Shown: one piece after another, positions 7,999 through 34,759 of the stretch
How the letters are laid out: each line of letters opens with the position of its first letter
How positions within the stretch are numbered: position 1 is the first letter of the stretch
Assembly (NCBI GenBank): GCA_031268525.1
Contig: JAIRXA010000085.1
Coordinates: forward strand, 1 to 34,759
Direction of reading: 5' to 3'
DNA length: 34,759 bases
Source: Coriobacteriales bacterium
GTDB taxonomy: Bacteria > Actinomycetota > Coriobacteriia > Coriobacteriales > UBA8131
The notes under the pieces: model-generated
Databases searched by the model: none
What the model was told of the DNA's origin: nothing
The model's input: only the letters and a program-made list of their open reading frames with translations
Program-made: the position numbers and the translations under genes

Positions 7999-8184
7999 GC
8001 TGCTCCTTTGTTCCTCAGGTGGCCGTCGACAATTGTAACGTAAGCCCGGAGCAGCCGCAGATCGCGCTCAAGAGCACGTTTCCTTATGCAATGTTCGTCA
8101 GGTAGACGGAACATGTGGTATGTGGGGCATGGGGACGTTTTCTCTTGCCTCACATACCCCCGGAAGTGTCGACAGGCAGAGAGT

Positions 8185-14708: not shown

Positions 14709-14726
14709 CTCGTACCTCCCGGGCCG

Positions 14727-15680: not shown

Positions 15681-15690
15681 AGGAGCCCTC

Positions 15691-16422: not shown

Positions 16423-16748
16423 AGTGATACCTCTTTCTGTCTTGGTTGGTGGCGTCCCGTCACCTTGTCATTTCTCATACTGAAGCCTTCAGTGTATGTG
16501 TCGGAATTTTCAACTTGAGTATTCATGGCTCCACGAATTCGTTTCGGGCGAAACCGTAGGCCTATAAAGGACAGAGGAGTTCGATAGGGATTTCCATCAT
16601 CCGTTCGTGCATGCTCTGAGTGAGCTTGATTGAGTGTAACGTGCGTCGCCGACGACTATCGAGAATTCCGTTCACTCGTCCCGGGCAGATAAGCTTTTCT
16701 CATTTATTGATGGGCGTACTGCGCCCTGATTCGAGAAAGGTGAACGCA

Positions 16749-19700: not shown

Positions 19701-19895
19701 ATAACCCGTCTGGATAACCGTCTCTCCCGCCTCGCCAAGGACATTGAGGACATGAAAGTCGACAGGGAGGCGCTCATCAATCGTCGCGACGACATCGCCA
19801 ATTCGCTGGGTACCCCCGAGAGCTACAGCTCTCAGATAAAGGCCAAACAGCTCAAGCTGGACGAGCTGGATACACAGATACAGGAAGGTGCGTGA
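16749..19895 (+). CDS. SNF2-like SF2 helicase (helicase part of DarB-like methylase-helicase proteins) with C-terminal coiled coil
   Basis: LLAHEVGVGKT, FIDEVHKYKN, LATGTP, HHLDTPWRPADMIQREGRGLRPGN. Start set to ATG 16749 (GAAAGGTGA RBS). Confidence 0.88.
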   Translation: MAITEIELIPLDDRSSGGAAVNAALLGPRQALTLSVRNLGKVDPEYIARLCGVSTEDAIDRLSGHIYQNPETWQGDAMQGWELAGGYLSGNVYLKLDAALRARSNSNAHGRFEANIQALKEVLPAAIPFANIYYGLGTPWIKESIYNAFVKEVLFGISGGGRLDLVTYDKAKNKWCIRSKRKLSKSTRGDFGTTYQGCGTLELLEDRMNLKSTVVKHEISDPAAKGGTRRVTDEKATAFTQRQQERLGEAFVTWVGNNEAVQCSIASSFNARFGYMLRKRFSGSYLDFPGLAEGIELFQCQRDAIARILLTPNTLLAHEVGVGKTYTMIVSGMLMRQMGISSKNLYAVPNDIVGQWEDFFRTLYPEAAILVITPDVMVPTLRNETLKEACTGDYDAIIMSHSVFERIPLRRPPKPVERRGSSKKAESCKPYKHVLYWFEDLGVNTLFIDEVHKYKNIPLHSRINNVYGLNITGADTSADVLAKVRCVQKMNGGGGVVLATGTPITNSLADVFAWQSMCQPSLLKMLNIDTFDKWVSTFAERTEEYEITLAGKPRLTTRFRCFCNLPELASLMSQFTDFHRLDMRDDLPKLDKYSEHVVAMNEYQEWVFEDFSGRIEKIRCRQVHPKDDNMLMVYTDARKTSLDVRLFDTAFVSKMECKVQRCARQIYEIYLAGADGLLTQLVFCDTSTPKNSFNIFDELTNELLALGIPRSEIAFVQDNTTTEQYKKALVAEMNSGRVRILVGSTAKGGTGFNVQERLVAIHHLDTPWRPADMIQREGRGLRPGNTNKQLFIYRYLTEKSFDAYQYQILETKQELIAQFMSGSFPFREVEDLGAAVLDYGQVKALLEDNPRIKERLDIANDITRLRLLLKGDEENRLALRSELAAIPAKIAEMDAHLAAASADSLTAAAAPAPLATQEDRKRHGAYILWAAEDIACGERRELGSYRGFGLSIAKEAEGEDLAVYAVLDGQGQYRVKLGESAAGAITRLDNRLSRLAKDIEDMKVDREALINRRDDIANSLGTPESYSSQIKAKQLKLDELDTQIQEGA

Positions 19896-21004
19896 TCCAG
19901 ATGAAGAAGGATGCCAATACAGGCGTTGCCCTGCAGGCAGCCATCAGTTCGGTCGCTGACCTCTATGTTGGCGCTCTCAATCAGGGGCTCTCGCCATCCA
20001 ACTTACCTCCGTTCATGCTTTGGGGGCCGCCGGGGGTCGGCAAGTCGCAGGGCGTGAGGCAGATCGCGCTCGACGTTGGGAAGCGCACTGGCAGGAAGGC
20101 CGTAGTCACCGACGTGCGTCTGATGCTCTTCAATCCCGTAGACCTGCGTGGCATACCGGTGGCCAATGCCGAGCGTACGCTAGCGGTTTGGCTCAAGCCG
20201 GAGGTTTTTGATATGGACGCCGACGACGGCATCGTCAACGTCCTGTTTTTGGACGAGATCAGTGCCGCACCACCGTCCGTGCAGGCCACGGCCTACCAGA
20301 TCACCTTGGATCGCCGCATCGGCGAACATAGGCTGCCAGATAACTGCATCGTCATAGCAGCAGGCAACCGTGTGACCGACCGCTCGGTGGCCTACAAAAT
20401 GCCCAAGGCACTCGCGAACCGGCTTTGCCACATCGACGTGCGTGCGGACCACAGGACGTGGAAGGCTTGGGCTGTGCGATCTGGCATAGACCCCCGCATC
20501 CTGGGCTTCTTGGAGTTTCAGCCAGACCGGCTCATGCGTTTTGACACTGCGACAGACGACCATGCCTTCGCCACGCCACGCTCTTGGGAGATGCTCAGCC
20601 GCGTGCTCGACTGCCTCACTGGCGATGACAGCGGGCTATTTCTACTGACGTCGGGCTGTGTTGGCGAGGGGGTGGCTACGGAGTTCCTCACCTGGATTGA
20701 TGTTTATGATAGTCTGCCCGACATTGCTGCCATCTTTGACGGCAAGGATGTTGAGGTGCCCAAATCGACTGACGCCTTATATGCGCTCGTTTCCTCGATG
20801 GTTGCCTACGCCAGGGACAACCTGGATGATGAATGGCGCATCGAACGCTCAATAGCCTACGGGACACGCCTGCCAGTGGATTATACGGTTGTACTCTTCC
20901 GCGATTACCAATCTATCAGTGAGCAGTCTAAGCGTTTGCTCATGCGCTCAGAAGCTCTCAACGACTGGAGCATAGCACACGGGAGATTCTTTAATGATAT
21001 CTGA
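19892..21004 (+). CDS. MoxR-like AAA+ ATPase
   Basis: Walker A WGPPGVGKS, Walker B LFLDE, AAGNR, ALANR and TPRSW; GTGA overlap with the helicase stop. Confidence 0.92.
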   Translation: MIQMKKDANTGVALQAAISSVADLYVGALNQGLSPSNLPPFMLWGPPGVGKSQGVRQIALDVGKRTGRKAVVTDVRLMLFNPVDLRGIPVANAERTLAVWLKPEVFDMDADDGIVNVLFLDEISAAPPSVQATAYQITLDRRIGEHRLPDNCIVIAAGNRVTDRSVAYKMPKALANRLCHIDVRADHRTWKAWAVRSGIDPRILGFLEFQPDRLMRFDTATDDHAFATPRSWEMLSRVLDCLTGDDSGLFLLTSGCVGEGVATEFLTWIDVYDSLPDIAAIFDGKDVEVPKSTDALYALVSSMVAYARDNLDDEWRIERSIAYGTRLPVDYTVVLFRDYQSISEQSKRLLMRSEALNDWSIAHGRFFNDI

Positions 21005-22280
21005 TGACGGATACGCGCGCAGAGCTGCGGATCGGCTCCTGCGCTCGCGCACGCGCCTGCTGCTCGACCATGGTTTCTTTGGACTACTGCTGATGCACAT
21101 GCACTTCGCCCTGGACGATACATTCGGCATGGCGGCGACAGACGGCGACTTCATCTACTTCTCCCCAGAGTTTCTGGCAAACATCAGCGACGAGGAGTTG
21201 GACTTCATCATGATGCACGAGGTGATGCATACAGCGCTTGCCCACACCTCGCGTGTCAGCGAGCGGGACAGTTTCGCCTTCAACGTGGCCTGCGACATCG
21301 TGGTTAACTCTATCATCATCAAGGAGATGGGAAGGGGGTCGTTCTCGCTCGAGAAGTATGGCCCAGCCATGCACCTGGCGCCCAGTGGCAGGGAGGGTTA
21401 TCTCTACTCCGCTGAGGAGGTCTACGAGATGCTTGGTAAATACAAATTACAGTGCGACCAGGCCTCTGATGGAGCAGGAGGAGGCACAGCGAAAGGCAAA
21501 GGTGCGGCCAGTGGCAGGCGTGAAGCGAACGGCAGAGGTACGGCCAGTGGCAGGCGTGAAACGAACGACAGAGGCGAGATACTTGATGACCACTCGCGCT
21601 GGGGCAAGCATGCTGGTGACGACAGGCATCAGGCGACTTGGCGGCAGCGCATCCTGGCTGCTGCAAAGGCTATGGAGCGCAGGGAACGGGATTGCGGCAG
21701 GCTCCCGCTGTTCGCTGAGAGGCTTGTCAGGGAGCTTGCGGAGTCAAAGGTGGACTGGCGCTCCGTACTTCAGAATTTCATTCAGGAGGAGGTCTTCGAC
21801 TACGGCTTCCAGCCACCGGACAAGCGCTACCAGGATGGCGACTTCCTGCTGCCAGACTTCAACGATAAGCGCAACGTGCTACACAACGTCATGTTCTACG
21901 TCGATGCTTCCGGGTCGGTATCCAACCAGGAACTTGTCGAAGCCATGAGCGAGGTCGTCGGGGCGGTCGAGCAGTTCGGCGGCTGCCTGACTGGCTACGT
22001 CTCCTTCTTTGACGCGAAGGTTGGCAAGCCCCTGCCATTCGATGATGTGTCCGACCTTAACAGAGCTGCCGTGTGCGGCGGTGGCGGCACCAGCTTCCAG
22101 ACCGTGTTCGATAGCCTCCAAGGTTTTGCCAAAGACAACCCCGTCTCCTGCGCCATAGTACTCACAGATGGCTATGCGCCCTACCCTGCAGAGAGTGCAG
22201 CGGCAGATATACCGATACTCTGGCTCATCAACAACGAGAAGAAGACCCCTCCTTGGGGACTGGTAGTGAGGATGGATTAA
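20994..22280 (+). CDS. DUF2201-type metallopeptidase plus vWA-like domain protein
   Basis: AATDG, MHEVMH, NVACD, DDHSRW, VDASGSV, GGGGTSF and LTDGY motifs; typical partner of this AAA family. Confidence 0.9.
   Translation: MISDDGYARRAADRLLRSRTRLLLDHGFFGLLLMHMHFALDDTFGMAATDGDFIYFSPEFLANISDEELDFIMMHEVMHTALAHTSRVSERDSFAFNVACDIVVNSIIIKEMGRGSFSLEKYGPAMHLAPSGREGYLYSAEEVYEMLGKYKLQCDQASDGAGGGTAKGKGAASGRREANGRGTASGRRETNDRGEILDDHSRWGKHAGDDRHQATWRQRILAAAKAMERRERDCGRLPLFAERLVRELAESKVDWRSVLQNFIQEEVFDYGFQPPDKRYQDGDFLLPDFNDKRNVLHNVMFYVDASGSVSNQELVEAMSEVVGAVEQFGGCLTGYVSFFDAKVGKPLPFDDVSDLNRAAVCGGGGTSFQTVFDSLQGFAKDNPVSCAIVLTDGYAPYPAESAAADIPILWLINNEKKTPPWGLVVRMD
21501..21572. repeat. 36-bp tandem duplication in the DUF2201 linker
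   Basis: GGTGCGGCCAGTGGCAGGCGTGAAGCGAACGGCAGA / GGTACGGCCAGTGGCAGGCGTGAAACGAACGACAGA. Confidence 0.9.
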
Positions 22281-22302
22281 GCAGACAGATGAAGAACTCG
22301 GA

Positions 22303-22791
22303 TTACTCTACTGTTTTGCTGGGCTTCGCCAGCACATCATTGAGGCCAATGTAGCCTCTGGAGAAAGCCAAGAGCTTGAGACTGTATGTATCCATCAGCT
22401 TGTTTGAGTAGGAGACGATCTCATCAATTATCTCAGCTGTAACTACCATGTCCTTATAGCGTGAACTGTTGCGATAGATAATCTCACGCATCTCCGTCAC
22501 CACCGAAAACGAGCCACTGAGCAAAGTCGTGTTGATGAGACAGCACGCCCACATGGCTTCTTCCAGTTTTTCTGTCGGGAGGCTGAATGGCAGGAAGCTA
22601 GCGACGGTGATCCGCTCGCCTTTTCCGTTTGTTTCTATAAAGAAGCAGGCGTCCAGGTCTTTACCTCTGATGTTGTAGTGGATGGTGAGCTCTTTGTCGT
22701 CGGCCTCATAATGCCAGCCGCGTTTGTCAAAATAACTCTTAATCGTCGCGTACGTTGCTGTTGCGTTTGATGTCTTGGTCTTGTCTCCCAT
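22303..22791 (-). CDS. YbjN / T3SS-chaperone-fold protein
   Basis: YFDKRGWHY...CLINTTLLSGSFSV...EIIYR pattern. Start set to ATG 22791 (GGAGG RBS). Confidence 0.7.
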   Translation of the reverse strand: MGDKTKTSNATATYATIKSYFDKRGWHYEADDKELTIHYNIRGKDLDACFFIETNGKGERITVASFLPFSLPTEKLEEAMWACCLINTTLLSGSFSVVTEMREIIYRNSSRYKDMVVTAEIIDEIVSYSNKLMDTYSLKLLAFSRGYIGLNDVLAKPSKTVE

Positions 22792-22793
22792 GG

Positions 22794-23777
22794 TTAATCC
22801 TCCCGAGTATTCATCCAAAGGCCGATCAGTCCTTTGGTGTCTATTTCGCCTTTGTTCAACGCTTCGAAGTGAGGGTAGAGATCATCCACTGTGCGAAGCG
22901 TGCTGTAGAGCATCACACCAAACAGCTTGTTCCCTGGTAGGCTGCTACGGTAGTAGGCGGAGGAAACATAGTCCAGCCTGTCACGCTCTGGGTCAAAAAT
23001 AAAGCATCCGACCGACAGATACTGGTTTATTTCGTTTATGCATCTTAGGAATTCGCTGCCTTGGGCTGCGTCGATAGCAAGTATTACCTTTGCGACTATT
23101 CGCAGACATCCAGACTGAGGAATTACCCTGAAACAAACAGGCACTCTCGTGCTCCTGAACTTGATAGCTGTGGTAATGGTGCGTTTTTCATCATCGCTGG
23201 AGTACAGCAATTCCTCATTGTCAAGAAAAGCGCAGAGTTTGCCAAAAATCAATTCAGCCTGCCCCAACTCATCCAAGCCGTCCATGTCAGCTCGCTCCAA
23301 GAGTTTGCGCCGCGCGGCATCTTCTGAAGCAATCTTCTCAAGTATTGCGGCACTGCGCTCCGTCAACTCCTTCTTAATCTCGCCGAAGACAGCAGCTACC
23401 ACCATGCGATAGTCCGGGCAATTTCTCGCAAGCCACATCATTGCGCCGAACTCGCTCATTATGGCCTCCGAATCCAAGCTCTGGCCATGCGAGGCTCTGT
23501 TCTCGTAGAAGCGCTCGAGCGTCTGACGGTTCTCGGGTATGTCGAGAGGGAAGTTACGACTCAGCCATCCGCGCATTATCTCGGTGTCTTTGTCTACAAA
23601 CGCCCCAAACTCATCGATTATCTCATCGCTCAGGCCTTCGGTTATCTTTTTTCCAACGCGCATCTCCAAATCGGCATATAGGTCCGAAATGAACCGAGTC
23701 TTCCGTTTTTCCGGCATCGAGCCAAGCCCTATCTCTTCGAGAAAGTCGTTGTCTAGTTTGAGCTTATCCATTATCAT
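22794..23777 (-). CDS. DUF5663-like N-terminal domain fused to a YbjN-like domain
   Basis: N-terminus KLDNDFLEEIGLG..LEMRVG..EGLSD..DEFGAFVD..SEFGAMMWL..PDYR.VV..EIKKE. C-terminus FLDNEELLY..INEINQYLSVGCFIFD. Confidence 0.72.
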   Translation of the reverse strand: MIMDKLKLDNDFLEEIGLGSMPEKRKTRFISDLYADLEMRVGKKITEGLSDEIIDEFGAFVDKDTEIMRGWLSRNFPLDIPENRQTLERFYENRASHGQSLDSEAIMSEFGAMMWLARNCPDYRMVVAAVFGEIKKELTERSAAILEKIASEDAARRKLLERADMDGLDELGQAELIFGKLCAFLDNEELLYSSDDEKRTITTAIKFRSTRVPVCFRVIPQSGCLRIVAKVILAIDAAQGSEFLRCINEINQYLSVGCFIFDPERDRLDYVSSAYYRSSLPGNKLFGVMLYSTLRTVDDLYPHFEALNKGEIDTKGLIGLWMNTRED

Positions 23778-25582
23778 GCCTTCTTTCTGCTCTTACCCTT
23801 GCGGCCAGTTTTTCCGTCAGTTTTGTCTCCGGGCTGGTTGGGCTGGTCGCCTCCCGGCTTCTCAGTTTGCGCAGCGCTGGTCTTCTGCGTTTTCTTATGC
23901 CTCACATCCTGCCGCTTCGCTTCTAAAAACGACAAGTCGTCCCATGAGATCGAGGTGGTGCTGTCAGCCTGTTGAGACTTTGGCTCCACCTTGGCTTCTT
24001 TGTCTTGAGCAGGCGGGGTTTTACTCTCTGGTGCAGTCATGCTGGCAAGCATGTCTGCAAGTTCTTGGACGGTGCCCGTATCAGTACCACTGCCCTCGAT
24101 TTGTGCGCGGACGGTCTCTATTTTCTTCTTTTGGCTCTGCTTGGGCTTGGCACTTTTTGTATCGACCTCTTTGCCATCCCTCCGCCGCCAGATGCCCTCT
24201 TCTACCATGCGTTTGCGTATCTGTGTCGCCGTGGTGTCATCTTGCGCTTTTGGCGCAAGTGGTACAGAGACGACAACGGGCTTAAGCTCCCTGTTGTCGA
24301 ACAAGAGCCTGACCATCGCTTTGTAGCGCCCGATGTGGCGCACAGAGTCGATGTCGATGTCAAACTGGTCGGCAATCACTCGTGCATCATTGGCTCCCAC
24401 CCTGAAGCAGGCGATGGTGCCAACGTTGCCGAGGACGGCCTCCAGGAGAGAATGGTCCTGGCTTCCGGTGTGTAGATTAAAACGGATCAGCTGGCGGATG
24501 TTCTGGTTTGCGAGGATAAAGCCGCAGCCGAACTTGCGTGCCTCAGCCAACAACACAGCGAAGTCTGGGGTTGCGAAACGCTGGAACTCGTCGATGTACA
24601 CGTAGTGCTTACGCAATGGTTCGTCGCCTTTGAGGCACCGCTTCATGATGGCGTTCTTGATAAGCGCTACAAAATACGAGCCTATGAAGTCCGCTACACT
24701 GGTGCCAACGAGAGCCTCGGGTATCTTAACGATGAGTATCTTGCCGTTCTCGATAATCTCCTCAATGTCGATAGTTGTCTTGCCGCCGCCGAGAAAGAAG
24801 CGCAGCGTGGGGTCGGACACCCACTCGTGTATTTTAGAGAGGAACCAATGGATGGTGGAATCCCAATCGCTGTCACGACGGGAGCGTTTCTCCAGGTTCC
24901 ACTGTTCAACCAGACGCGTGCTCTTGATGGACTTCAGCGCATCGCCCAGATGGGCATCGTTGATGCTCAGAGCTTCAACCTCGGTAATGCTGCGCTCGAA
25001 TGGATAGCCGGGGTCCATGATGGTCTCCAGGCGCAAGCGCATAAGCTCTTCGCCACGAGGGCCGTAGTAACCTTCTGGCATCCTGCTGGATATCAGGGCG
25101 TTGAGGGTTTGCACAACAAGTGTCTTTTTTGCTTCATCGTTACAGTCAGCGTTCAAGAGATTGATTATCGGAAGGTACTCAGTGTTGGAGAAGTCCGCCA
25201 ACACTACGTCATTGAGGCGGTTTGGTGGAATTTTGGCCAATATCCTGTCGGCGGTCTTGCCGTGGGGGTCAATGAACGTAATCCCGTTGCCTTGGTTGAT
25301 ATCCTGCATTCCTGCATACTCAAACAAGTTGCTTTTGCCAGTTCCGGTCTTCCCAAAAAACCATGTTTGCTGCAATCTGTCTTCGGGAAACTGCCTGCAT
25401 TCCAGAATCTCTCCATGACTGAGGTAGTGCCCCAGGCTGACTCCCAAATCCAGGGTGTCCAACTCGTTTTTGAGATTGGAGTCCAGATTATAGCTGTCGC
25501 TTGTTTCTTTGCGATTCACTCTCTTGCCGCCTCTCCTGCTGATCTCTGAGTCGTTGATGAGTATTGTTTCAAAATCCCTCAT
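23774..25582 (-). CDS. Soluble VirD4/TrwB/HerA-like P-loop ATPase (DUF87-like)
   Basis: GKTGTGKS, FIDPHG, YIDEFQRF, AEARKFG, ILANQ and GNVGTIACFRVGANDA. No N-terminal TM; Lys-rich disordered tail. Confidence 0.88.
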   Translation of the reverse strand: MRDFETILINDSEISRRGGKRVNRKETSDSYNLDSNLKNELDTLDLGVSLGHYLSHGEILECRQFPEDRLQQTWFFGKTGTGKSNLFEYAGMQDINQGNGITFIDPHGKTADRILAKIPPNRLNDVVLADFSNTEYLPIINLLNADCNDEAKKTLVVQTLNALISSRMPEGYYGPRGEELMRLRLETIMDPGYPFERSITEVEALSINDAHLGDALKSIKSTRLVEQWNLEKRSRRDSDWDSTIHWFLSKIHEWVSDPTLRFFLGGGKTTIDIEEIIENGKILIVKIPEALVGTSVADFIGSYFVALIKNAIMKRCLKGDEPLRKHYVYIDEFQRFATPDFAVLLAEARKFGCGFILANQNIRQLIRFNLHTGSQDHSLLEAVLGNVGTIACFRVGANDARVIADQFDIDIDSVRHIGRYKAMVRLLFDNRELKPVVVSVPLAPKAQDDTTATQIRKRMVEEGIWRRRDGKEVDTKSAKPKQSQKKKIETVRAQIEGSGTDTGTVQELADMLASMTAPESKTPPAQDKEAKVEPKSQQADSTTSISWDDLSFLEAKRQDVRHKKTQKTSAAQTEKPGGDQPNQPGDKTDGKTGRKGKSRKKA

Positions 25583-25768
25583 TGCGACGGAATTTCTGAT
25601 GCTTTTCTGCCATGTACCTGCTTATCTCGATAATTCGGCTATACTATTCCATTGAAGGCAAGCACACGGTCATGCATGTAGCATTTTCATGTTTTCACGT
25701 CTGGTGCTTTCGGAATGTAGATGAGTTAAACGAATTGAAGAAGGCGTACCAATCGGAGGGCCGGGGAA

Positions 25769-27862
25769 ATGCCGAACGAAGAACGTGCAGAATCATTACA
25801 GAACCCGAATGACAACAATCCTGAAGCCAACGCGCTTGAATTCGAAGAAGCCGATCTGCCGGGAGCGCCAGGCGGAGAGGCGTATTTCAGAAAGTCCTTT
25901 GATAGGATGGGGAATCCGACGCAGGCAGCCATGCGTAGCCAGTATGAAGAAGCTTTCACAACCCCCGAAGAAACCCTCGAGTGGTTAGAGGGACTACCTA
26001 CCAGGGGGCACAATGCTTCAGAGAAGATGAAAGAGCTCGTTAATGAGAAACACTCAACTCTCTTTACTGCCATAGAACTCGCGTGCAAAAACGATAACGC
26101 CGCCTATGTTGAGACTCTCGTCGCATTGATCAGGGCTACAGCAGGGAATGACACGGCGGACGCAATGCGAGCAAACATTAGGAACTGGATTGCCGGAGAG
26201 AGTTGTCCCACCATAGAAACTCAGGCTTTCATACTCTGCTTCGCATTGCAGCTGGACGCCCTTGAGGCACAGGACTTCCTACAAAAAGCCTGCTATATGA
26301 ATGTCTATAACTTCAGGAAGACGAAGCACATTTTTTACAGCCTTGGCCTTCAGTTTGGGCTAACATACGATGGCACGGAATCAATCCTCATCAGATACCT
26401 GCATAAAACCATTTCGGCAGAGCAGAAAGAGGCGCTCCAAAACGGCGAAGCGTTGAAGTATATATTCTCCACCACACAGGGCGATGCGAAGATAAAAAAG
26501 TTCTGGGAATTTCTTATCCACAACAAAGATCTATTATCCGATACGTCGCCAGGTGCACATTTTTTGGCGTTATTGCAAGCATTACTGGCGAGTACTCCTC
26601 TGGCAAAAGAATGCCTAAAGCAGGTAGATCTCAACGCCGTTGTCGGCAATTCGTCTGAATGGATTGCAGGTTCTGACTTCGATGCGGTTTTCTCCGTAAT
26701 TGAAGACCAGAAGAGACGGGGCTCGCTCATCCGTTACCTCGACGAGCACTTTCTGCAAGGCCTCTCTCAGTATTGTGGCACACTACCACCGGAGACCGTT
26801 GCTGCAGTTTACGAGACTGCCTTTTCAAGAGTGTGGAATAACGCCGACTACATGATAAGAGTATATTACGACCTTGTAGCGCGCGATAACGCGCACAGAT
26901 ACGCGCCGAGAGGCGGGGGTACAACGCGAGCGCACGAGGCTGTCATGGATGTTGTGTTGAGAGGCGAGTATAGAGACCCGGATCTCTACGAAACGATAGA
27001 CACCATTCGTTACAAGCTGGTAGATTTACGCAACGAGCAGGATGACGTCGCAAGCCTACAAAATGAAATAGATGGCGCCCTGGATGAGATGGCCACACTT
27101 ATTGGTGGCTTATTGAGGGTGAGTTCGAAGAGCTTCATTGGCTACAGCAAAACTGCATACCAAAGGTACCTCTGGTATAGGATCAGGTTAACAAAGCAGA
27201 TAATCAGGGAATCCTCGGAAACAACAATGCCCCCGTCACCCGCAGGCGAGAGCATCGACGAGAACACCGTGGACTTGAAAGTCTTAGAAAGCTACGCCGA
27301 AGCTCTGCAAGAGCACGGCAAGGTTTCCGACCCCGAATTCGTCTTCAACCTGTATGGTAAATACGCCAACCTCACTCTACGGGCAAATGGCGAGCGACGA
27401 GACCGAAGTGAAAAAGAGATTGACATCAAGCTATTGGCACAAGCGGGCATCGAAGAGATGCCTGCAATAAATTATTTCTCGCGGGTACGAAAGAACCCGG
27501 CAACGCTTACAACAAGTGAGTGGGGCAGAAGCATTCTCTTTCTTTTCTATTTCTATGGTTTTGTCTCAGATAGCTACATCAGAGAGCTGGCAATAGAAAA
27601 GTTTTATGATGAGCACCCAGGGCTGGCAGGAGCAGAGGGCATTAGTCACGAGAATTATCTTTCATTTTATTATGGACTCTGCAAACTTGCCTATGATTGT
27701 GGCCTTGCGATACCGTATCCGAGAAGGCGATTTGACGCACTGCTACTGAGGGCAGCTGCAGAGCTGGATAACCGGAACAATGGCGATGACCAGCCGCTGG
27801 TGTACTTTGGTGAGCTTATTGAGTACGTTTACGATACTGATTCGGAGCGATATGATGCCTGA
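25769..27862 (+). CDS. Large hypothetical protein with a possible XRE-like HTH region
   Basis: 697-aa ORF with GGAGG upstream. RANIRNWIAG..P..FILCFALQLDALEAQDFL resembles an XRE-type HTH plus following helices. Confidence 0.6.
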   Translation: MPNEERAESLQNPNDNNPEANALEFEEADLPGAPGGEAYFRKSFDRMGNPTQAAMRSQYEEAFTTPEETLEWLEGLPTRGHNASEKMKELVNEKHSTLFTAIELACKNDNAAYVETLVALIRATAGNDTADAMRANIRNWIAGESCPTIETQAFILCFALQLDALEAQDFLQKACYMNVYNFRKTKHIFYSLGLQFGLTYDGTESILIRYLHKTISAEQKEALQNGEALKYIFSTTQGDAKIKKFWEFLIHNKDLLSDTSPGAHFLALLQALLASTPLAKECLKQVDLNAVVGNSSEWIAGSDFDAVFSVIEDQKRRGSLIRYLDEHFLQGLSQYCGTLPPETVAAVYETAFSRVWNNADYMIRVYYDLVARDNAHRYAPRGGGTTRAHEAVMDVVLRGEYRDPDLYETIDTIRYKLVDLRNEQDDVASLQNEIDGALDEMATLIGGLLRVSSKSFIGYSKTAYQRYLWYRIRLTKQIIRESSETTMPPSPAGESIDENTVDLKVLESYAEALQEHGKVSDPEFVFNLYGKYANLTLRANGERRDRSEKEIDIKLLAQAGIEEMPAINYFSRVRKNPATLTTSEWGRSILFLFYFYGFVSDSYIRELAIEKFYDEHPGLAGAEGISHENYLSFYYGLCKLAYDCGLAIPYPRRRFDALLLRAAAELDNRNNGDDQPLVYFGELIEYVYDTDSERYDA

Positions 27863-29300
27863 AAATCGTCATGAGACAGCACAGGCACTGGGCGAAGTGG
27901 CCGTAGACAGCTACGAAGCGAACCCCTCTCTGCGCTTCGACAGCATAAAACAAGACTACTGGAAACGGGAGAGCCTGTTTTCGTTTGCGCGGGAAAAGTA
28001 TCCAGATACAGACCTCTATAACTACTCTGTCGATGTTGAACGGAACATCAGAATTGATCCCATCAGGGCAGCAAGTAGTCTACGCTTGGCGCTTGAAACA
28101 TTTGTCGCGATTATTCTTAAGGACAATAACATCTCCGTATCAATAAACTATTCATTTAACAATCTGTTTGAGAAGTTAAAGGACGCACTGCACTTAGATG
28201 TGAGAGCGCAGGGTTTCTTGCATAGGATGAAAGAGGGGCAAAAGAAAACGATAAATTGGCCAGATGAGTATAACAGCAATTTTAAGCGCCTGAGAGCATT
28301 GACGAACGCAGCACATCATATTGAGGACACCAAAAAAGACACCGATGCGAAATTGATGACCGAGCAGAATGTGGCGTATGCTGCGCGCGTATATTACTTG
28401 GAATTATGCAAATACGCACAACTTTATCCTGTGAACGCTATCTCATGGCCAATCGGTGACTTCTACGAACTCAAGAAACTTGCCAAGAATGCAGCGCCTT
28501 TAAACAGAATAGAAGTCCTGTCTGCCAAAAGGAGTATTTCTGCGCCTGGTTTAGATTCTCATGCGATTCTTTACGTGTATTCCCATAGAGGAGAGGGGCT
28601 GAGCGACGGCATCATCAACCGCCAGGGAATTGTCAAGGATATTGAGCGGAGCTCCGGGCTTAACCCCATTGTACCAAACGTAGAGGTTGTGGCCGACACA
28701 TACGATAGCAAGATACTGGCATATACCTTCGCCACGGAACCAATTGTGCTCTTGCCCGACAGCTTTGACTTGGAGCTTTCAGACGCCGAATACTGTGAGT
28801 TATTCACGAGAATTGCTGCAGGACTCGCGGCTCTGCAGGATTCGTCGCCCCCGGTTTTTCATCGAGCGATATCTCGATATGCTGTGGTTTTTGAAAAGAC
28901 TTCAGCCGGACGCTATCTGCCAAAGTTGATCAATTTCAACCTTGCGAAAGTCGAGGGGTTGGCAGGAACTGTAGGGCCAGATCTGAAGGGAGTTCTTATT
29001 TCTAACGCATATAAACCACCTGAACTGCACCTTGATACTTCTTGCACGGATGAGATGGGCCAAAGTAAGCTAAATGTCGATTGGGGCAAATACGATGTTT
29101 ACGCCTTAGGAGTTCTCTTTCTTGACGTTCTTAACAGGCTTACGGGTACCGTTACCTTGGCTCAGGCAAAGAAGCTCCATCCTCCTGCAGCGGATGGATT
29201 ATCAGAGGACTTCTATTACTTACTTGAGAAGATGGTTGATCCTGCACCGGAGAATCGGCCAAATATGACGATGGTAGCCAAGCAATTGGCTCAGCCCTGA
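27852..29300 (+). CDS. DUF4145/HEPN-like domain fused to a kinase-fold domain lacking catalytic Asp residues
   Basis: SSLRLALE...LRALTNAAHH, then FHRAIS, LINFNLA, YKPPE, DVYALG and PENRP. The start overlaps the upstream stop; GGAG RBS. Confidence 0.7.
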   Translation: MMPENRHETAQALGEVAVDSYEANPSLRFDSIKQDYWKRESLFSFAREKYPDTDLYNYSVDVERNIRIDPIRAASSLRLALETFVAIILKDNNISVSINYSFNNLFEKLKDALHLDVRAQGFLHRMKEGQKKTINWPDEYNSNFKRLRALTNAAHHIEDTKKDTDAKLMTEQNVAYAARVYYLELCKYAQLYPVNAISWPIGDFYELKKLAKNAAPLNRIEVLSAKRSISAPGLDSHAILYVYSHRGEGLSDGIINRQGIVKDIERSSGLNPIVPNVEVVADTYDSKILAYTFATEPIVLLPDSFDLELSDAEYCELFTRIAAGLAALQDSSPPVFHRAISRYAVVFEKTSAGRYLPKLINFNLAKVEGLAGTVGPDLKGVLISNAYKPPELHLDTSCTDEMGQSKLNVDWGKYDVYALGVLFLDVLNRLTGTVTLAQAKKLHPPAADGLSEDFYYLLEKMVDPAPENRPNMTMVAKQLAQP

Positions 29301-29306
29301 AAGCCT

Positions 29307-30938
29307 GTGATTATTGTGAGCCATTCGACATCCTCATACTTCATTGTCGGCGACTCCCGCCAAGGCCAAGAACTGAGCTCCAAAACGCCGCCCCTCAATC
29401 TTGACGGTACTGAGGTGCAGATAGGTGGGCTGATCGGCGTTGGCACAAGCTGCCTGGCATACGACGGTAAGACCGTTGGTTTGAGCGAGCGCGTGGTGGT
29501 CAAGGAGTGGTTTCCCCGTGATCTCGCCGCCTGCAAAGCCCTGAAGCGCGATACGTCTTCTTCCTGCCTTATCGCCGACGCAGAAGTGATGAAGGACATC
29601 GAAGGCGATGAGCTCCGGAAAGGATTCGAAAAGAGCTTCATCAAGTGGCTTGAATACCAGAGAGAAGCCCCCCGTTTTACCCTCTGGCCGGAGCTGCACC
29701 CCCTTGGTGATACGGTCTACCTCCTGACAAAGCTCGGAGGGGAGGGTATGTCGCTGTCACAGTCCCGCGCGGACCTCCTGAAAAAGGATTGTTCGCGCGA
29801 ATCCCTGTGCTCGGTGCTCGAAGTTACGATTTCCCTCCTCAACAGGCTGCAGCCCTTGCACACGGCCGGACTCCTGTACATCGACGTCAAACCCGAAAAC
29901 ATCCTGCTGTTCAGCACAGACAAGACGCCTGGCGAGAGCAGGGCGGTGGCCCTGTTCGACTTTGACTCCACGGCGAGCCTCACCGATATACAGAATGGGT
30001 CTGTCATCCTCCGTCCCACGGCAGGGTGGGCACCCCACGAAGCTTGGGAGCCGACCCAGCCCGAGAGCGTGAACTTCTGCACAGACCTATACGGCGTGGG
30101 GCGCGTCCTGCTGTGGTTATTGGGTGTGGAGCCGTCAGCAGACGGAGCGGACTGCCTTGGCGAGAACTTTATACGGACGAACATCGGGGCTTACCTCGGT
30201 CGGTTTGCCAGCACCGAGTTTTCTACGAGTGCCTGCAACACCATAATTGTGGCCTTGGCGAAGGTGTTGGCAAATGCGCTACGGCACGACACCAAAAAGC
30301 GCTATCAGAGCATCGCTGAGATGCGTGCGGCCCTGATAGCCGTCCGTGAAGGCTTGGGAACGTACCATGCCGAACCTGAGCCCAACGATGATGAGCTGCA
30401 TGAGTTTAAAAGGCGCTTTGACAACATGGAGGAATTAATCCGCACTGCATTCGATAATGTCAGTCGGCAGCTCCAAAAGAGCACGACAGAGATTATTCAA
30501 GAAGTACAAAAGACGCCGGAACAGGCGTATCAGGGGGCATATCAGGGGGCAATCGATGCGGGGAAAGCAACTTCTGGCCATGGCGATCTCGACACGCAAG
30601 CCCCCGATAAAAAGAGCTCGTTGCGGGTGGAAGCATCTGGCAACGGACTTGCTATACAGATTGAGGTAACAGATTCCGGCAATGACAGCACCCCCGGAAA
30701 GCCCGAAGAAAATACTGACCCGCCCAAAGCGGACCTCCCAACTGCTCTTCCAGAAAGGCCTTATCCCGCCTTGGACGAAAAAACTAATGAGCGCATATCG
30801 TCACTGATTAACAGCTTGGGTCAACACAGTGACGATTCGGATCCTGCTGCATCGTTGACAATTGAACTGCTTGACCAGAGAGTTGCGAACGACGAATCGA
30901 CTACGGCTCTTCAGGAATGGGTAGCTATCTATCTGTAG
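29307..30938 (+). CDS. Hanks-type Ser/Thr protein kinase with coiled-coil/disordered C-terminus
   Basis: IGVGTSCLAY, VVVKE, YIDVKPENI, LFDFD, WAPHE, TDLYGVG and KRYQS motifs; exact start uncertain. Confidence 0.9.
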   Translation: MIIVSHSTSSYFIVGDSRQGQELSSKTPPLNLDGTEVQIGGLIGVGTSCLAYDGKTVGLSERVVVKEWFPRDLAACKALKRDTSSSCLIADAEVMKDIEGDELRKGFEKSFIKWLEYQREAPRFTLWPELHPLGDTVYLLTKLGGEGMSLSQSRADLLKKDCSRESLCSVLEVTISLLNRLQPLHTAGLLYIDVKPENILLFSTDKTPGESRAVALFDFDSTASLTDIQNGSVILRPTAGWAPHEAWEPTQPESVNFCTDLYGVGRVLLWLLGVEPSADGADCLGENFIRTNIGAYLGRFASTEFSTSACNTIIVALAKVLANALRHDTKKRYQSIAEMRAALIAVREGLGTYHAEPEPNDDELHEFKRRFDNMEELIRTAFDNVSRQLQKSTTEIIQEVQKTPEQAYQGAYQGAIDAGKATSGHGDLDTQAPDKKSSLRVEASGNGLAIQIEVTDSGNDSTPGKPEENTDPPKADLPTALPERPYPALDEKTNERISSLINSLGQHSDDSDPAASLTIELLDQRVANDESTTALQEWVAIYL

Positions 30939-31429
30939 CCAAGCAGTATTGCTGAAATAATCGGATGTTCAAGGCTAAGAAGGTTGGCGATTTCCACCCT
31001 TGCCTCCAGCACGTCTCCAACCCACAGGCTTTTTAGCCCAAAGCCTGTTGCTGCAAGAAGCGCATTTTCAATCGCGGCGCCAATTGAAAGCAGGTCTGCT
31101 GGATGCGAGTCCTTGCCCACTCCTGTGGTTTGAGAGTCGCATGCTATCAACACAACAGGGGCCTGTACTATTGCATCTGCACTTTTCTCTACCCCATCGC
31201 GAATAGAACTCGCATTCGTAGGTGTCCGTGCTGCTTCATAGAGAATATGTGCGATTGCAACCTTAATCGACTGATCAGTTATTACCACAAACGACCAGGG
31301 CTTCCTGTCTTTGGCAGATGGTGCCTTGTCGGCAAACTCGATAATGCTTTTGATACTACGATTATCTAGACTCCTTGAGTTAAATCTACGTGTGCTTTTG
31401 CGAGTGGCAATGGCGTCAAAAACGCTCAT
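30929..31429 (-). CDS. Nitroreductase family protein
   Basis: IATRKSTRRF, APSAKDRKPW and AAIENALLAATGFGLKSLW. Start is ATG 31429 or the TTG at 31480. Confidence 0.92.
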   Translation of the reverse strand: MSVFDAIATRKSTRRFNSRSLDNRSIKSIIEFADKAPSAKDRKPWSFVVITDQSIKVAIAHILYEAARTPTNASSIRDGVEKSADAIVQAPVVLIACDSQTTGVGKDSHPADLLSIGAAIENALLAATGFGLKSLWVGDVLEARVEIANLLSLEHPIISAILLGYR

Positions 31430-31476
31430 GTCAGAAGATTGGTCTCGCTCGCTATCATTTTTGTCGCATGATGTCT

Positions 31477-34470
31477 TCAAGAGTTCCTCGCAGGAGTCTG
31501 CTCACGTCGTTCCAACTCGTCTTTTGCTGCTGTGCTTCGATAATCCACCTTGAGATCGATATCGCGTAATTGCGGCAACTCGTCAATGTGCAACCCGGGT
31601 CTCTCGTTGTTGTTTCTTGCTGGGTTCTGGTCTGTTTCATTCAACATTTGGACTTTAAAGTCCTCTTGCGGAGAAACTGAAGTAAGGCCGTGAACGAGAC
31701 AGAACGCGAACTCAACAAAACCTTTTAGCTTGTCCCCAAACCAAGGATTAATGAGTTTAGAACTATCGATATGAACAGCAAAGGCATCTTCGCCACAACC
31801 GTGCGCATTATTGTGAGCGCCTATTCCAACGGGTCTGGATACCGTCAAGCCTCGTATTGCACATTCAAAAATGTAAAGCGAGAGGGTGTTTTGCTCTACA
31901 AAATCCACTGATGAGCCAGCCACAAAAGCCATGGCCAGAGAGTGTGGGTTTTTGGTAGCGGACCCTGCATCTGAAGCCATGAATTTGCAATCTCGTATCA
32001 TCAGAGATGAAACACGCCCACCGAGAAGAAGCATCCCTCCCGTTTGGCTGCGAACAGTTCCAGCATTAGGATCGATTTGTTGTGAGGGAATGGCTGCAAC
32101 TCCTGATGTCAAGGAATAGAGGAGCATGGATGCCGCACTGTCCTTGTGAATCCCGCGATAATAATAAAGTGGCTCCATAGTCTTCTCGTCTGCTGGAACA
32201 TAAAAGGATGGCAGGCCGTTTTCGCGCATGTCCTGGATGCCTTCCTCGGAGAAACTGCCTGTCACATCATCTGTGTCGACCTCGCCGAGGATCGTACAAT
32301 GATCAAATACAGCGCCATCCAAGAGACAATTGACAAAGACCACTCCTTCAAAACAACAATCATGGAACTTTGACGAGCTGAAATCACAGTTTGTGAATAT
32401 TGTGTTGCGGAAAACAGCGCCTACAAATTCCGATAAGCGCCACCTCAGGTTAACCAGATGTGTCGTCTTGCCGTTATCTGAGCAAAACACATCAAACGTC
32501 TTGCTGAGGTCGCCTTGATTGAAACGCCCCCATACTCTACGTTCACCAAGCATTGCAGTAAATGAAGCAATATCAATGCTTGGGTCAACGTCTGGATTAT
32601 TGTTTCTGCTCCAAGCTGTTAAGGCTCGCCCTAACCCATCATGCGCAAAACGGACCGTTGGACTCTCTTTGCCGGTGACAAGGCAGATTTTGGTCTCTTT
32701 AAGCCATAGTGCAGCAAACACAAAGCCTTTAATTTGCTCAATTAATACAGAGCGTGGGTCACAGGCAAACATTGCTCCTGACGAAACATCATAGGGGTCC
32801 TCGAGCCAAGGCACACGATCTATGCCTGTGAGTTGTGCCGCTTCTTTTGGTAAGGCTTCTCCCATCGCGCCCAAAACAGTCTCTTGACCAGCGCTGAGCA
32901 GGAGGGAGCTTGCTCTTTGTTTTGCGCTAGGGGCATCAACATCTTCCATCTCTCTAAGGGCGTCGTCCCATATGGTTTTGAGTATGTCTTGCCACTTTTG
33001 GACAGCCTCATCGGAGCCGTCTGGCGTTCTTGAAAGTAGAGCGATTTCCTTGCCATAAGAGTCCCTGAACAATTTGTTAAGCTCAACGGATCGCTTATAG
33101 TCATCACTCTTGAGGGGTTGCGTTATTCTCCTCAAATGCTCGCGAACCATTGGTTCAACGGTACCAACGCTGATATCGGGGATATCCTTCGCGGCAAGCG
33201 CACAGTGTTGTAACTTCTGATCTATGGTGGCAGAGAATCCTGCACCCGAAATGTGTTCAGCAAATGATGTCAGCTTGGTAGCCATCTCATCAAAACTGTC
33301 TTGCGAATCTATGACCATATCGAAGAAGCCATCAATATCATGTGCGATTGATTCTCGAAGACCGTCGCGCTCATCGCGTACTGTTTTTACCTGCAAAGCG
33401 TTTGGGCTTTTTTCGATGGCCTGACGCACCGACGACAAACTGAGCCACCAGGAGAAGTCTTCAAACTCATCAAGACTGCCCTGAGAATTGATGGCCCTGT
33501 CGAAAAAGTCATCAAAACAATAAAGTGCTAAATGGAGCAGATGTTCTCTTGTTATTATTGTTCGCGTATTTTCAAAACGTTTATTGGCAGTCCAATAGAG
33601 AGCGTACAGTACTGCCTGTAGGCTGAGCAGCCAAGAAGAGTCCATCAGCTTTTCTGAGTTGTAAAATGTTTTAAAAAGCACATTCGCAACATCCCCTTCT
33701 GTTGCAAGCTCACCAGCACTATCCCTATCCTGCCCTACTTTATCAGGAGTCCCCAATGCGCCACTATTATTAATAATCCTCTCGATTGCATTTTTATCGG
33801 TAATGGGAAAGAGCCGAAACGTATCGAAGCTGCAGGCCCTCAGTTTTGCCATGATGTCCTTCAGCTTATAGTCGTATTCAGAGCGTAGAGACACAACGAT
33901 CTTCAAGCTGAAATTTCGATTGATATACGACAGCCAGTCAGAAAACAGATCTACCTCTCTTATGGTAGAGTGTCTGATGAACTCCTCAAATTGATCGAGA
34001 ATCAATACGGGTATCCCCTCAAAATCGCAAAGCGTTCTGGCAAGCCCGTACTTTGGGTCCTTGCCCATCTCGTCTGTCAGCCATCTTCTATTTTCCTCAT
34101 TAAACTGCCCAAGAAAAATGCTCTCGATATAGTGCTCAAACCCTTCGCTCCTTATTTTCTGTATCTCTTCGCGCCCTCCCCAATTGGAACAGAAAAATGG
34201 GACAAACTGGTATTTTTCCATCACAGTGCGCAAACCAACTTGAAGAAACGACGATTTTCCGACGCCTGATTCGCCATGAAGTACAACAAGACTGTTGTCA
34301 TCCAGAGAATACATAAATTTATCGAGGTCGTTACCGCGGCCCTCAAACGGCTTACCTTCCTCGTAATCCTTCAGGTCCAAGGGTCTTGGACCTGGCCATG
34401 GACACTCAGATTCAATGCAGTTAACAGCGTCGCGCCACAGCTGCAGTGGGCTGCTTGTGCAATCAGACAT
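31477..34470 (-). CDS. nSTAND1-type NTPase with C-terminal pentapeptide repeats
   Basis: CPWPGPRP..FEGR, Walker A LHGESGVGKSS, Walker B LILDQFEE, SLRSEY and FAHDGL; then FRNTIFTNCDFSSSKFHDCCFEGVVFVNCLLDGAVFDHC. Start set to ATG 34470 (AAGGAG RBS). Confidence 0.85.
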   Translation of the reverse strand: MSDCTSSPLQLWRDAVNCIESECPWPGPRPLDLKDYEEGKPFEGRGNDLDKFMYSLDDNSLVVLHGESGVGKSSFLQVGLRTVMEKYQFVPFFCSNWGGREEIQKIRSEGFEHYIESIFLGQFNEENRRWLTDEMGKDPKYGLARTLCDFEGIPVLILDQFEEFIRHSTIREVDLFSDWLSYINRNFSLKIVVSLRSEYDYKLKDIMAKLRACSFDTFRLFPITDKNAIERIINNSGALGTPDKVGQDRDSAGELATEGDVANVLFKTFYNSEKLMDSSWLLSLQAVLYALYWTANKRFENTRTIITREHLLHLALYCFDDFFDRAINSQGSLDEFEDFSWWLSLSSVRQAIEKSPNALQVKTVRDERDGLRESIAHDIDGFFDMVIDSQDSFDEMATKLTSFAEHISGAGFSATIDQKLQHCALAAKDIPDISVGTVEPMVREHLRRITQPLKSDDYKRSVELNKLFRDSYGKEIALLSRTPDGSDEAVQKWQDILKTIWDDALREMEDVDAPSAKQRASSLLLSAGQETVLGAMGEALPKEAAQLTGIDRVPWLEDPYDVSSGAMFACDPRSVLIEQIKGFVFAALWLKETKICLVTGKESPTVRFAHDGLGRALTAWSRNNNPDVDPSIDIASFTAMLGERRVWGRFNQGDLSKTFDVFCSDNGKTTHLVNLRWRLSEFVGAVFRNTIFTNCDFSSSKFHDCCFEGVVFVNCLLDGAVFDHCTILGEVDTDDVTGSFSEEGIQDMRENGLPSFYVPADEKTMEPLYYYRGIHKDSAASMLLYSLTSGVAAIPSQQIDPNAGTVRSQTGGMLLLGGRVSSLMIRDCKFMASDAGSATKNPHSLAMAFVAGSSVDFVEQNTLSLYIFECAIRGLTVSRPVGIGAHNNAHGCGEDAFAVHIDSSKLINPWFGDKLKGFVEFAFCLVHGLTSVSPQEDFKVQMLNETDQNPARNNNERPGLHIDELPQLRDIDLKVDYRSTAAKDELERREQTPARNS

Positions 34471-34471
34471 T

Positions 34472-34759
34472 TTAGCGCTCCTTACTCGAACAGCTGGCAA
34501 AGGGACTATAGTTCACAATAGTCCAATTGCCCTCGTCGGCATCAGAAACAGCCGCCTCCAGGTGCTCAATATAGTGTTCTATTGCTGGCGTAAACTCGTT
34601 AGTATTGCTTTCAACGGTGTCGAGCTCCGACCAGCGTAGTAATTCGGTAGCTCGAGGTGAGAGATCGCTATTGTTGATCACCACCCCGATTTTTGTCGGC
34701 CCGAGGTAGTTATTCTTCCTCAGCATTGGAGTAATCAGTTGGGAGATGAAGATCGGAAG
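34472..34759 (-). CDS. C-terminal end of a gene co-transcribed with the STAND NTPase (partial)
   Basis: The frame is open to the window edge (LPIFISQLITPMLRK...) and its stop lies 1 bp before the STAND start. Confidence 0.6.
   Translation of the reverse strand, partial: LPIFISQLITPMLRKNNYLGPTKIGVVINNSDLSPRATELLRWSELDTVESNTNEFTPAIEHYIEHLEAAVSDADEGNWTIVNYSPFASCSSKER

Follow-up and report, generated by a model that had tools for sequence, protein, structure and literature searches.

We analyzed a three-gene operon (genes 1, 2 and 3) at positions 25769-30938 of a 34,759-nucleotide stretch of DNA from a Coriobacteriales bacterium (assembly GCA_031268525.1, contig JAIRXA010000085.1); the whole stretch is called the window in this text. 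Gene 2 encodes a HEPN-like domain joined to a pseudokinase, and gene 3 encodes a Ser/Thr kinase. To judge from gene order in relatives, the succession of a pseudokinase gene and then an active kinase gene is conserved, and in those relatives the pair heads a four-gene operon resembling the type I Mokosh system. An earlier note, made from the letters of the window alone, had taken the three genes as a candidate new system and had missed this link to a four-gene Mokosh-like operon that includes a helicase. Our reading is that genes 2 and 3 would be a kinase-controlled HEPN module in divergent form, and that the locus would be a derived, helicase-less variant, most likely serving in anti-phage defense or abortive infection; we give this reading a probability of about one half. 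The pair and its link to Mokosh are the solid part of it; for the three genes as a system there is a single example.

The pseudokinase-kinase pair among relatives of gene 2

The gene 2 family is rare. A HMMER search of 1.84 billion cluster representatives returned 80 proteins at E <= 1e-3 and 14 at E <= 1e-10, and the family size of ~80 is to be read as clusters at 50% identity. Most of these relatives are 410-480 amino acids (aa) long and align over both domains of gene 2 (approximately residue 40 to 480), the closest being P0003 with 32% identity. The distribution is also patchy: among ~400 Bacillota genomes 7 scored, and 2 of them were read as family members. Gene 2 itself was not found in the genomes of 60 relatives or, by tblastn, in plasmids, and a word-index homologue search with it returned only the self-match. 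An alignment of the family's core clade (A3) found no member in viral contigs, and an alignment of the window's own subfamily (A4) found none in metagenome or viral contigs.

The context of the relatives was read from loci gathered by a pattern scan seeded with an 8-member core-clade alignment, 4 from species-representative genomes (Anaerovoracaceae, Tissierella, Tissierellia and Khoudiadiopia) and 13 more from metagenomes, to which a profile search of ~400 Bacillota genomes added the locus G520. Downstream genes were counted with tblastn and blastp using the proteins of locus L002; three of the loci break off within the pseudokinase gene or right at it. A Ser/Thr kinase gene encoding 273-309 aa lies directly 3' of the pseudokinase gene in 15 of the 15 loci with downstream DNA. 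Where a locus is sufficiently long, a helicase gene (~1030 aa) is always present (12/12), as is a fourth gene of 421-733 aa (10/10). The order is thus HEPN-pseudokinase, Ser/Thr kinase, MkoA-like helicase of the Upf1 type and a protein resembling the N-terminus of MkoB. Against PADLOC MkoA the helicase scores E 1e-105, and it carries Pfam AAA_11/AAA_12. The fourth protein matches MkoB profiles over their N-terminal 130-200 positions only (E 7e-10) and has no Pfam match, and the H-x-K-x4-D (HKD) motif was found in 0 of 9 copies. HEPN is the only nuclease-type domain found in these four-gene operons.

Type I MkoA has been described as a Ser/Thr kinase fused to a helicase, and MkoB as a phospholipase D (PLD) nuclease; the accessible part of that description mentions no HEPN domain (10.1101/2022.05.11.491447). 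By its gene content, the relatives' operon is a split, PLD-less system like Mokosh type I, with the kinase in a gene of its own and an extra HEPN-pseudokinase gene in first place. It appears to be a so far undescribed branch of Mokosh type I, PLD-less and with a split kinase, and the HEPN domain may be its nuclease.

The window's gene 2 falls within a clade of seven proteins (P0001, P0003, P0005, P0013, P0020, P0023, P0069) at an SH-like (Shimodaira-Hasegawa-like) support of 99-100. In trees made with FastTree only and with the root set by midpoint alone, the window's copy stands on a long branch; its clade is sister to a 59-row clade that holds the core context loci, and the G520 locus lies across the midpoint root, in a third clade. 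Loci with the Mokosh-like context are thus placed to either side of the window's clade, and that context is probably ancestral. The clade holds six other intact proteins; the Asp of HRD is kept in 0 of its 7 members, and the HEPN Asn and His in 6 of 7. Four of the seven (P0005, P0013, P0020 and P0069) have long charged, low-complexity C-terminal tails that bring their totals to 578-644 aa and that resemble the tail of gene 3 in character.

The window contains no ORF (open reading frame) for a COG1112/Upf1-like helicase of the MkoA type; PADLOC gave no MkoB match among 14 window proteins, and Pfam no PLD family among 18 window ORFs. The source is a metagenome-assembled genome of 1.98 Mb that is 78% complete, and its sole match to the relatives' helicase (E 6e-10) is a different protein on another contig (C129:310-4065, L020). 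That protein is a helicase of at least 1083 aa with AAA_11/AAA_12, REase_MTES_1575 and DUF3320, and it is not linked to the operon.

Layout of the operon and domains of its products

Three ORFs on the same strand (+) fill the operon in the ORF listing of the window (Table 1). The longest ORF of gene 2 runs from 27780 to 29300, and its ATG at 27852 has GGAG 5 nt upstream; the 482 aa that follow from this ATG are identical in length to the gene call in the public protein collection. With that start, genes 1 and 2 overlap by 11 bp at the stop of gene 1, and the stop of gene 2 is separated by 6 bp from the GTG at 29307, which has no clear Shine-Dalgarno sequence. Because the database call for gene 3 has 540 aa and implies a start at GTG 29316, this second gap may be 15 bp. 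The coordinates thus agree with the coupled three-gene operon first described, an 11-bp overlap followed by a 6-bp gap, apart from the alternative GTG. With a GGAG preceding gene 2, the overlap has the appearance of a translational coupling of genes 1 and 2 that is under selection. Scans for promoter and terminator consensus sequences did no better than on shuffled sequence.

Table 1. Positions of the operon, its domains and motifs, the relatives' operon and the neighboring genes. Positions are those of the window unless a locus is named.
Feature	Position	Strand	Details
Gene 1	25769-27862	+	697 aa, ATG start; GGAGG 8 nt upstream
Gene 2	27852-29300	+	482 aa, ATG start; HEPN(DUF4145)-pseudokinase fusion
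HEPN-like (DUF4145-type) helical domain of gene 2, residues ~40-190	27969-28421	+	Pfam in relatives, fold, motif
Candidate HEPN active-site motif R148-A-L-T-N152-A-A-H155-H156	28293-28319	+	Conservation in 73 relatives
Pseudokinase domain of gene 2, residues ~200-482	28449-29297	+	Foldseek kinase matches
HRA replacing HRD	28860-28868	+	Gene 2 translation
NFN replacing DFG	28932-28940	+	Gene 2 translation
Gene 3	29307-30938	+	543 aa, GTG start; Ser/Thr kinase
Gene 3 catalytic loop D193-V-K-P-E-N198	29883-29900	+	PknB alignment
Gene 3 DFD 218-220	29958-29966	+	PknB alignment
Four-gene operon of relatives	L002:7998-14714, L004:7941-14678, L030:3007-10641, 15 further loci		Bacillota and metagenomes
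VWA protein, PP2C phosphatase, kinase-like protein	13068-16422	-	243 aa, 332 aa, 546 aa
SNF2-family helicase, MoxR-like AAA ATPase, DUF2201 metallopeptidase + VWA-like protein	16620-22280	+	1091 aa, 370 aa, 428 aa
TraD/VirD4-like P-loop ATPase and two downstream YbjN-domain proteins	22303-25582	-	ATPase 602 aa; one YbjN-domain protein with DUF5663
Nitroreductase gene, then upstream nSTAND1 NTPase with pentapeptide repeats	30929-34500	-	NTPase 1007 aa

Conservation in gene 2 was followed in two alignments. In the first, of 35 sequences, E63, R78, H156, R338 and D415 are invariant; the consensus of the N-terminal half is R-x-x-G-N-x-x-x-H, and that of the C-terminal half is Y-H-R-x-L-S ... K-F-D-x-A-K. 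The second comprises 73 relatives, namely those of the 80 matches that are 380-660 aa long, 7 having been left out for length. The motif residues of gene 2 lie in LRLALE (R78, E82), LRALTNAAHH (R148, N152, H155, H156), FHRA (H337, R338, A339) and NFN (361-363). R78 is kept in 69 of the 73 and E82 in 66; position 148 is Arg in 61 and Lys in 6, N152 is kept in 70 and H156 in 67. The LRLALE helix and the R-x3-N-x2-HH motif that had been read from the letters are present and go beyond a chance likeness, and across the family the conserved pattern is R148-x3-N152-x3-H156. Pfam DUF4145 (PF13643) matches 14 of the 35 aligned full-length relatives, with a best E of 5.6e-9.

A model of the N-terminal domain alone (residues 38-197, with 13 relatives from the fetched loci) reached a predicted local distance difference test (pLDDT) score of 70.9. 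With this isolated model Foldseek returned nothing under E 0.8, HEPN entries being among the weak rows, and a profile of the domain's alignment against PDB sequences gave chance rows only. An exhaustive structure aligner did place HEPN at the top: nearly all of its best matches belong to the HEPN superfamily, at Z 7-10.5, which is within the range below ~13 that may be generic for helical bundles. They include the HEPN domain protein 4nqf (chain B; Z 10.5, root-mean-square deviation 3.3, 116 residues aligned), the HEPN entry 2hsb (9.9), TT1696 (1ufb, 9.3), Roquin (4txa, 9.2), Csm6 (8jbc and 6tug, 9.1 and 8.9), AbiA (8oz7, 9.0), the sacsin HEPN domain (3o10, 8.6), the HepT toxins (5yep, 8xdj and 7ae2; 8.4, 8.2 and 7.0) and AbiV (9bj5, 7.0), with LsoA (5hy3) at 6.5. 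The model thereby agrees with the up-and-down bundle of four helices that HEPN domains have. Taken alone, this match of a predicted fold is suggestive. We hold the assignment to be sound because it is joined by the Pfam matches of the relatives and by the conserved R/N/H residues, and on the three together the N-terminal domain of gene 2 is very probably of the HEPN/DUF4145 type, as had been proposed.

The remainder of gene 2 has a bilobal kinase fold. An AlphaFold2 model of the whole protein, built from the 35-sequence alignment, reached pLDDT 79.4 and a predicted template modeling score (pTM) of 0.80, and with it Foldseek returned only protein kinases from the PDB (RIPK2, 5ng2, E 2.5e-10 over 305 columns), the kinase domains of PKR and IRE1 among them. 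Pfam Pkinase matches 24 of the 35 relatives; the window's gene 2 stays under the cut-off (E 4.3e-4). The kinase fold runs to the end of the protein at residue 482, and nothing lies C-terminal of it. Residues that hold the fold together are kept (D415 in 73/73, R469 in 67/73), as are H337 (70/73) and R338 (73/73). At the HRD position Asp is found in 3 of the 73 relatives (Met in 24, Asn in 11, Ala and Leu in 8 each), the catalytic-loop Lys in 2 and the catalytic-loop Asn in 1. The position of the DFG Asp has D in 32, E in 18 and N in 14, and that of the beta3 Lys has Arg in 54 and Lys in 4. The window's gene 2 has HRA, Ser at the Lys position, Ala at the Asn position, NFN, and Tyr at beta3. Because the catalytic Asp, Lys and Asn are missing family-wide, gene 2 is a long-standing pseudokinase and not a locally decayed kinase. 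The changes from HRD to HRA and from DFG to NFN that had been noticed in the letters are there, and the pseudokinase claim built on them stands against simple decay, the homologues being likewise without the catalytic Asp.

Gene 3 looks like an active kinase by the catalytic residues that it retains. In a phmmer alignment D193, K195, N198 and D218 fall on the catalytic residues of PknB (YIDVKPEN on HRDVKPAN, DFD on DFG), in keeping with the DVKPEN and DFD motifs noticed earlier; the Gly loop (G44-x-G46) and K66 come from inspection of the sequence only, the N-lobe lying outside the alignments. The protein is a Ser/Thr kinase of the non-RD type (Y-I-D) with DFD, and its C-terminal tail (residues ~350-543) is long, charged and of low complexity. 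It scores just below the Pfam Pkinase cut-off (E 1.7e-7; 31.3 bits vs. 31.7) and matches the Ser/Thr kinase phrog_2361 in PHROGs at E 1.4e-14. In PADLOC, 24 of the 25 matches listed are to PD-T4-6 profiles, the best of them at E 2.9e-13; the MkoA profile is matched in its kinase part (E 8.4e-10). By word-index search its relatives are remote kinases only, the best having 23% identity (E 6.6e-6).

Gene 1 has no family in Pfam, NCBIfam or PHROGs and no relative in the PDB by sequence, and PADLOC gave a weak HamB row only (E 9.6e-4). A word-index search of 5.8 billion proteins returned its self-match alone, and neither 300 other genomes of the phylum nor 4 Bacillota genomes with the gene 2 family gave a match. 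Its ESM Atlas model is poor (pLDDT 0.47); the structure rows cover residues 26-212 at a template modeling score by query of 0.14-0.17. The nearest Atlas clusters are unnamed Bacillota proteins of 360-600 aa, a few of which carry HTH_26 in 16-60% of their members. An N-terminal helix-turn-helix (HTH) at approximately residues 81-212 is thus a weak lead; residues 95-189 gave no HTH among PDB relatives, and the description of gene 1 as HTH-like was not confirmed by the Pfam, NCBIfam, PHROGs or PDB sequence searches. The idea that gene 1 is a disguised Mokosh part was tried and rejected (hhalign probability 0.4 against the helicase N-terminus and 0.1 against the fourth-gene family; BLASTP E 10 against the fourth gene).

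Proposed mechanism, rival readings and known systems

HEPN RNases function as dimers that share a composite site. In the mechanism that we propose, the HEPN domain of gene 2 would be the effector RNase, two such domains having to come face to face; the pseudokinase would be the scaffold that controls this pairing, by analogy with RNase L and Ire1; and the kinase of gene 3 would switch the HEPN-pseudokinase on or off, either by phosphorylation or by kinase-pseudokinase pairing. The input signal would perhaps come from gene 1 as a sensor or regulator, and in the relatives the helicase would supply it. The domain identities, the loss of kinase catalytic residues throughout the family, the conserved HEPN R/N/H residues and the synteny of the pair are what we observe; the defense role, the RNase activity, the gating by phosphorylation and any role of gene 1 are what we infer. 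A bolder version would make the locus a helicase-independent, phosphorylation-switched HEPN RNase that evolved independently as a bacterial counterpart of RNase L and Ire1, its dead kinase fold dimerizing the N-terminal HEPN nuclease under the control of the dedicated partner kinase, gene 1 a new kind of infection sensor in place of the helicase, and the HEPN-pseudokinase the nuclease effector of the PLD-less Mokosh branch; we regard this combination as unlikely.

Several observations weigh against genes 2 and 3 being a divergent copy of a HEPN defense module. No member of the family is more divergent than the window's gene 2, which stands on a long branch with 27-32% identity to its nearest relative and is without the Asp/Glu of the DFG position and the beta3 Arg that most relatives keep. 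Its own N-terminal domain scores under the DUF4145 cut-off (E 0.074; 13.6 bits vs. 23.1) and the relatives match, so its membership in that family rests on transitive homology. The spacing of 7 residues from R148 to H156 is outside the textbook Rx4-6H, and H155, at a spacing of 6, is common to only 7 of the 73 relatives. The empty Foldseek search with the isolated domain and the generic range of the aligner's Z values belong here as well. All context loci lie in clades other than the window's own. In that clade no more than three of the seven proteins have the HEPN Arg, which leaves RNase competence uncertain. The trio of genes 1, 2 and 3 did not turn up a second time in anything searched, genes 1 and 3 being near-orphans; of the candidate three-gene system in the earlier note, the pseudokinase-kinase pair survives (15/15) and the trio is unproven, gene 1 being without a relative anywhere searched. 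Next to the operon no complete canonical defense system was recognized, all PADLOC matches being partial. Finally, because the genome is 78% complete, a helicase may yet act in trans.

The main rival, to which we give a low probability, makes the gene 3 kinase the effector. The HEPN-pseudokinase would then have no catalytic role and serve as a sensor or regulator: through its HEPN-like domain it would only bind a trigger, be it RNA or a phage protein, and it would turn on gene 3 by an allosteric route. Pseudokinases do activate partner kinases in this way, and the single-gene kinase defenses PD-T4-6 and Stk2 phosphorylate many host or phage proteins after infection. The matches of gene 3 to PD-T4-6 profiles (24 of the 25 listed) and to phrog_2361 would fit such an effector, as would the window's clade, where only 3 of 7 proteins have the HEPN Arg; the accessible text of the HEPN census calls the DUF4145 motif "mostly conserved (80%)", so that inactive members exist (PMC3710099). 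What speaks for a catalytic HEPN domain is the retention of N152 (70/73), H156 (67/73) and R148 (61/73), a pattern typical of a catalytic site over a binding surface, and the fourth gene without HKD (0/9), which leaves HEPN as the sole nuclease-type domain found in the relatives' operons.

The locus could also be the decaying remnant of a Mokosh-like system after loss of the helicase and the fourth gene, gene 1 being an unrelated neighbor that happens to overlap; we consider this quite unlikely. It would account for the Mokosh-like context on both sides of the window's clade, for a window without either gene in a genome whose sole helicase match is a different protein, and for the unusual divergence of gene 2, in which further conserved residues are gone. 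It sits poorly with three long intact reading frames, with a gene 2 that retains its HEPN R/N/H triad and the structural residues of the kinase fold, with a gene 3 that retains every catalytic residue, with an 11-bp overlap and GGAG that look like selected coupling, and with six other intact proteins in the clade. Housekeeping or regulatory signaling by a kinase/pseudokinase pair with gene 1 as a transcription factor, a role outside conflict, is very improbable: the weak HTH lead in gene 1 and the general knowledge that bacterial Ser/Thr kinases often regulate growth are set against a rare and patchy family (absent from the genomes of 60 relatives, 2 members among ~400 Bacillota genomes), a low-GC (guanine-cytosine) accessory region and relatives embedded in Mokosh-like operons.

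Of the known systems, Mokosh type I shares its type of kinase with genes 2 and 3. The kinase part of the PADLOC MkoA profile PDLC03920 matches gene 2 (profile positions 122-275, E 6.5e-15) and gene 3 (positions 110-326, E 8.4e-10), and the relatives of gene 2 head operons with an MkoA-like helicase and a protein like the N-terminus of MkoB. Unlike Mokosh type I, the relatives have a separate kinase gene, an extra HEPN-pseudokinase gene and a fourth gene without HKD (0/9), and the window has neither the helicase nor an MkoB-like gene; with helicase and PLD both absent, membership of the window's locus in Mokosh type I was rejected.

In RNase L and Ire1 the (pseudo)kinase domain governs the dimerization of HEPN-class domains. 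These proteins share with gene 2 a single polypeptide in which a (pseudo)kinase fold and a HEPN-fold domain are combined, and the logic expected of gene 2 by analogy would be the same, pairing of the kinase folds bringing two HEPN domains together. In contrast to them, gene 2 has its HEPN domain at the N-terminus, so that the order is inverted, and the domain is of the DUF4145 type and not KEN; ankyrin or lumenal sensor domains are absent, and the active kinase is encoded by a separate gene. The likeness is one of analogy and not of membership, which was rejected on domain order and HEPN type. KEN is the HEPN-superfamily RNase domain linked to the kinase in RNase L and Ire1, according to the accessible text of the 2013 HEPN census, which lists fusions of DUF4145 to restriction endonucleases (REase), helicases, TIR and others and no kinase (PMC3710099). 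Likewise, a full-text search of the literature, as far as its texts were accessible, found no description of a DUF4145-kinase fusion or a bacterial HEPN-pseudokinase fusion.

Gene 3 resembles the kinase defenses PD-T4-6 and Stk2 in matching many PD-T4-6 profiles, which have no curated cut-off in PADLOC. The match is short of a full one, being confined to the C-lobe half of the profile (positions 98-287 of 311), the tail is unrelated, and gene 3 is not a stand-alone gene but is preceded by the pseudokinase-HEPN gene. HepT toxins are HEPN RNases silenced by covalent modification (AMPylation) near the site. The HEPN-MNT (HepT-MntA) system shares the HEPN fold with gene 2, its HepT structures (5yep, 7ae2 and 8xdj) matching the N-terminal domain at Z 7-8.4, and it is a precedent for restraining a HEPN RNase through covalent modification; unlike HepT, the domain in gene 2 is fused to a pseudokinase and the modification proposed is phosphorylation by a protein kinase. 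Membership in HEPN-MNT was rejected, there being no nucleotidyltransferase partner. Both kinase-fold genes match the MAD6 kinase domain of MADS weakly (NF047741, 38.6 bits for gene 2 and 20.5 bits for gene 3), and a mad8-like ATPase adjoins the operon. Membership in MADS was rejected too, as these scores are far under the 460-bit cut-off and the window holds no methyltransferase or other MADS genes.

Kinase-controlled HEPN-class RNases such as RNase L and Ire1 are central to eukaryotic antiviral and stress responses, and to our knowledge their bacterial counterparts have barely been explored. The family of gene 2 defines a compact bacterial group in which HEPN is fused to a dead kinase, paired with a live kinase and linked to Mokosh. 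If the pair is an effector switch, it would explain the purpose of the kinase domain in Mokosh type I and would show that HEPN can replace PLD. The window's copy, in which the pair is without a helicase and is joined to an orphan protein, is a natural experiment and a small system in which the pair's own role could be studied.

Surroundings of the operon

The GC content falls from ~0.58-0.61 in the housekeeping part of the window to 0.45-0.54 over 22-34 kb, and the drop over 22000-34759 is consistent with acquired DNA. By reading of translations, the housekeeping part holds a large pyruvate formate-lyase-like gene and GatA/GatB. The TraD/VirD4-like ATPase (Table 1) is transcribed divergently from gene 1 and matches PADLOC mad8 at E 1.2e-14 and phrog_5156 at E 1e-23. 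Together with the low GC and the nSTAND1 NTPase, this mad8-like ATPase supports the defense-island setting that had been proposed, and the region looks like a conflict-system island in its make-up. The PADLOC matches, those to kinase, MkoA and mad8 profiles among them, are all partial.

On the other side of the operon, the nitroreductase gene points toward gene 3 and shares the last 10 bp of it. Farther upstream, the SNF2 helicase gave weak DrmD, BrxH and DpdE rows, and the three-gene run that it belongs to has overlapping stops and starts. The triad of VWA protein, PP2C phosphatase and kinase-like protein looks like a second, separate phospho-signaling conflict module. In its 546-aa member the N-terminal region is weakly kinase-like, with rows for lanthionine-synthetase kinase and MkoA, and the C-terminal tail looks hydrophobic and membrane-like by reading of the translation. 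A gene for a zinc-ribbon protein with DUF5050 repeats lies at 8185-9099 (-), where an equally long frame on the opposite strand, 8086-9006 (+), is probably a by-product of the repeats.

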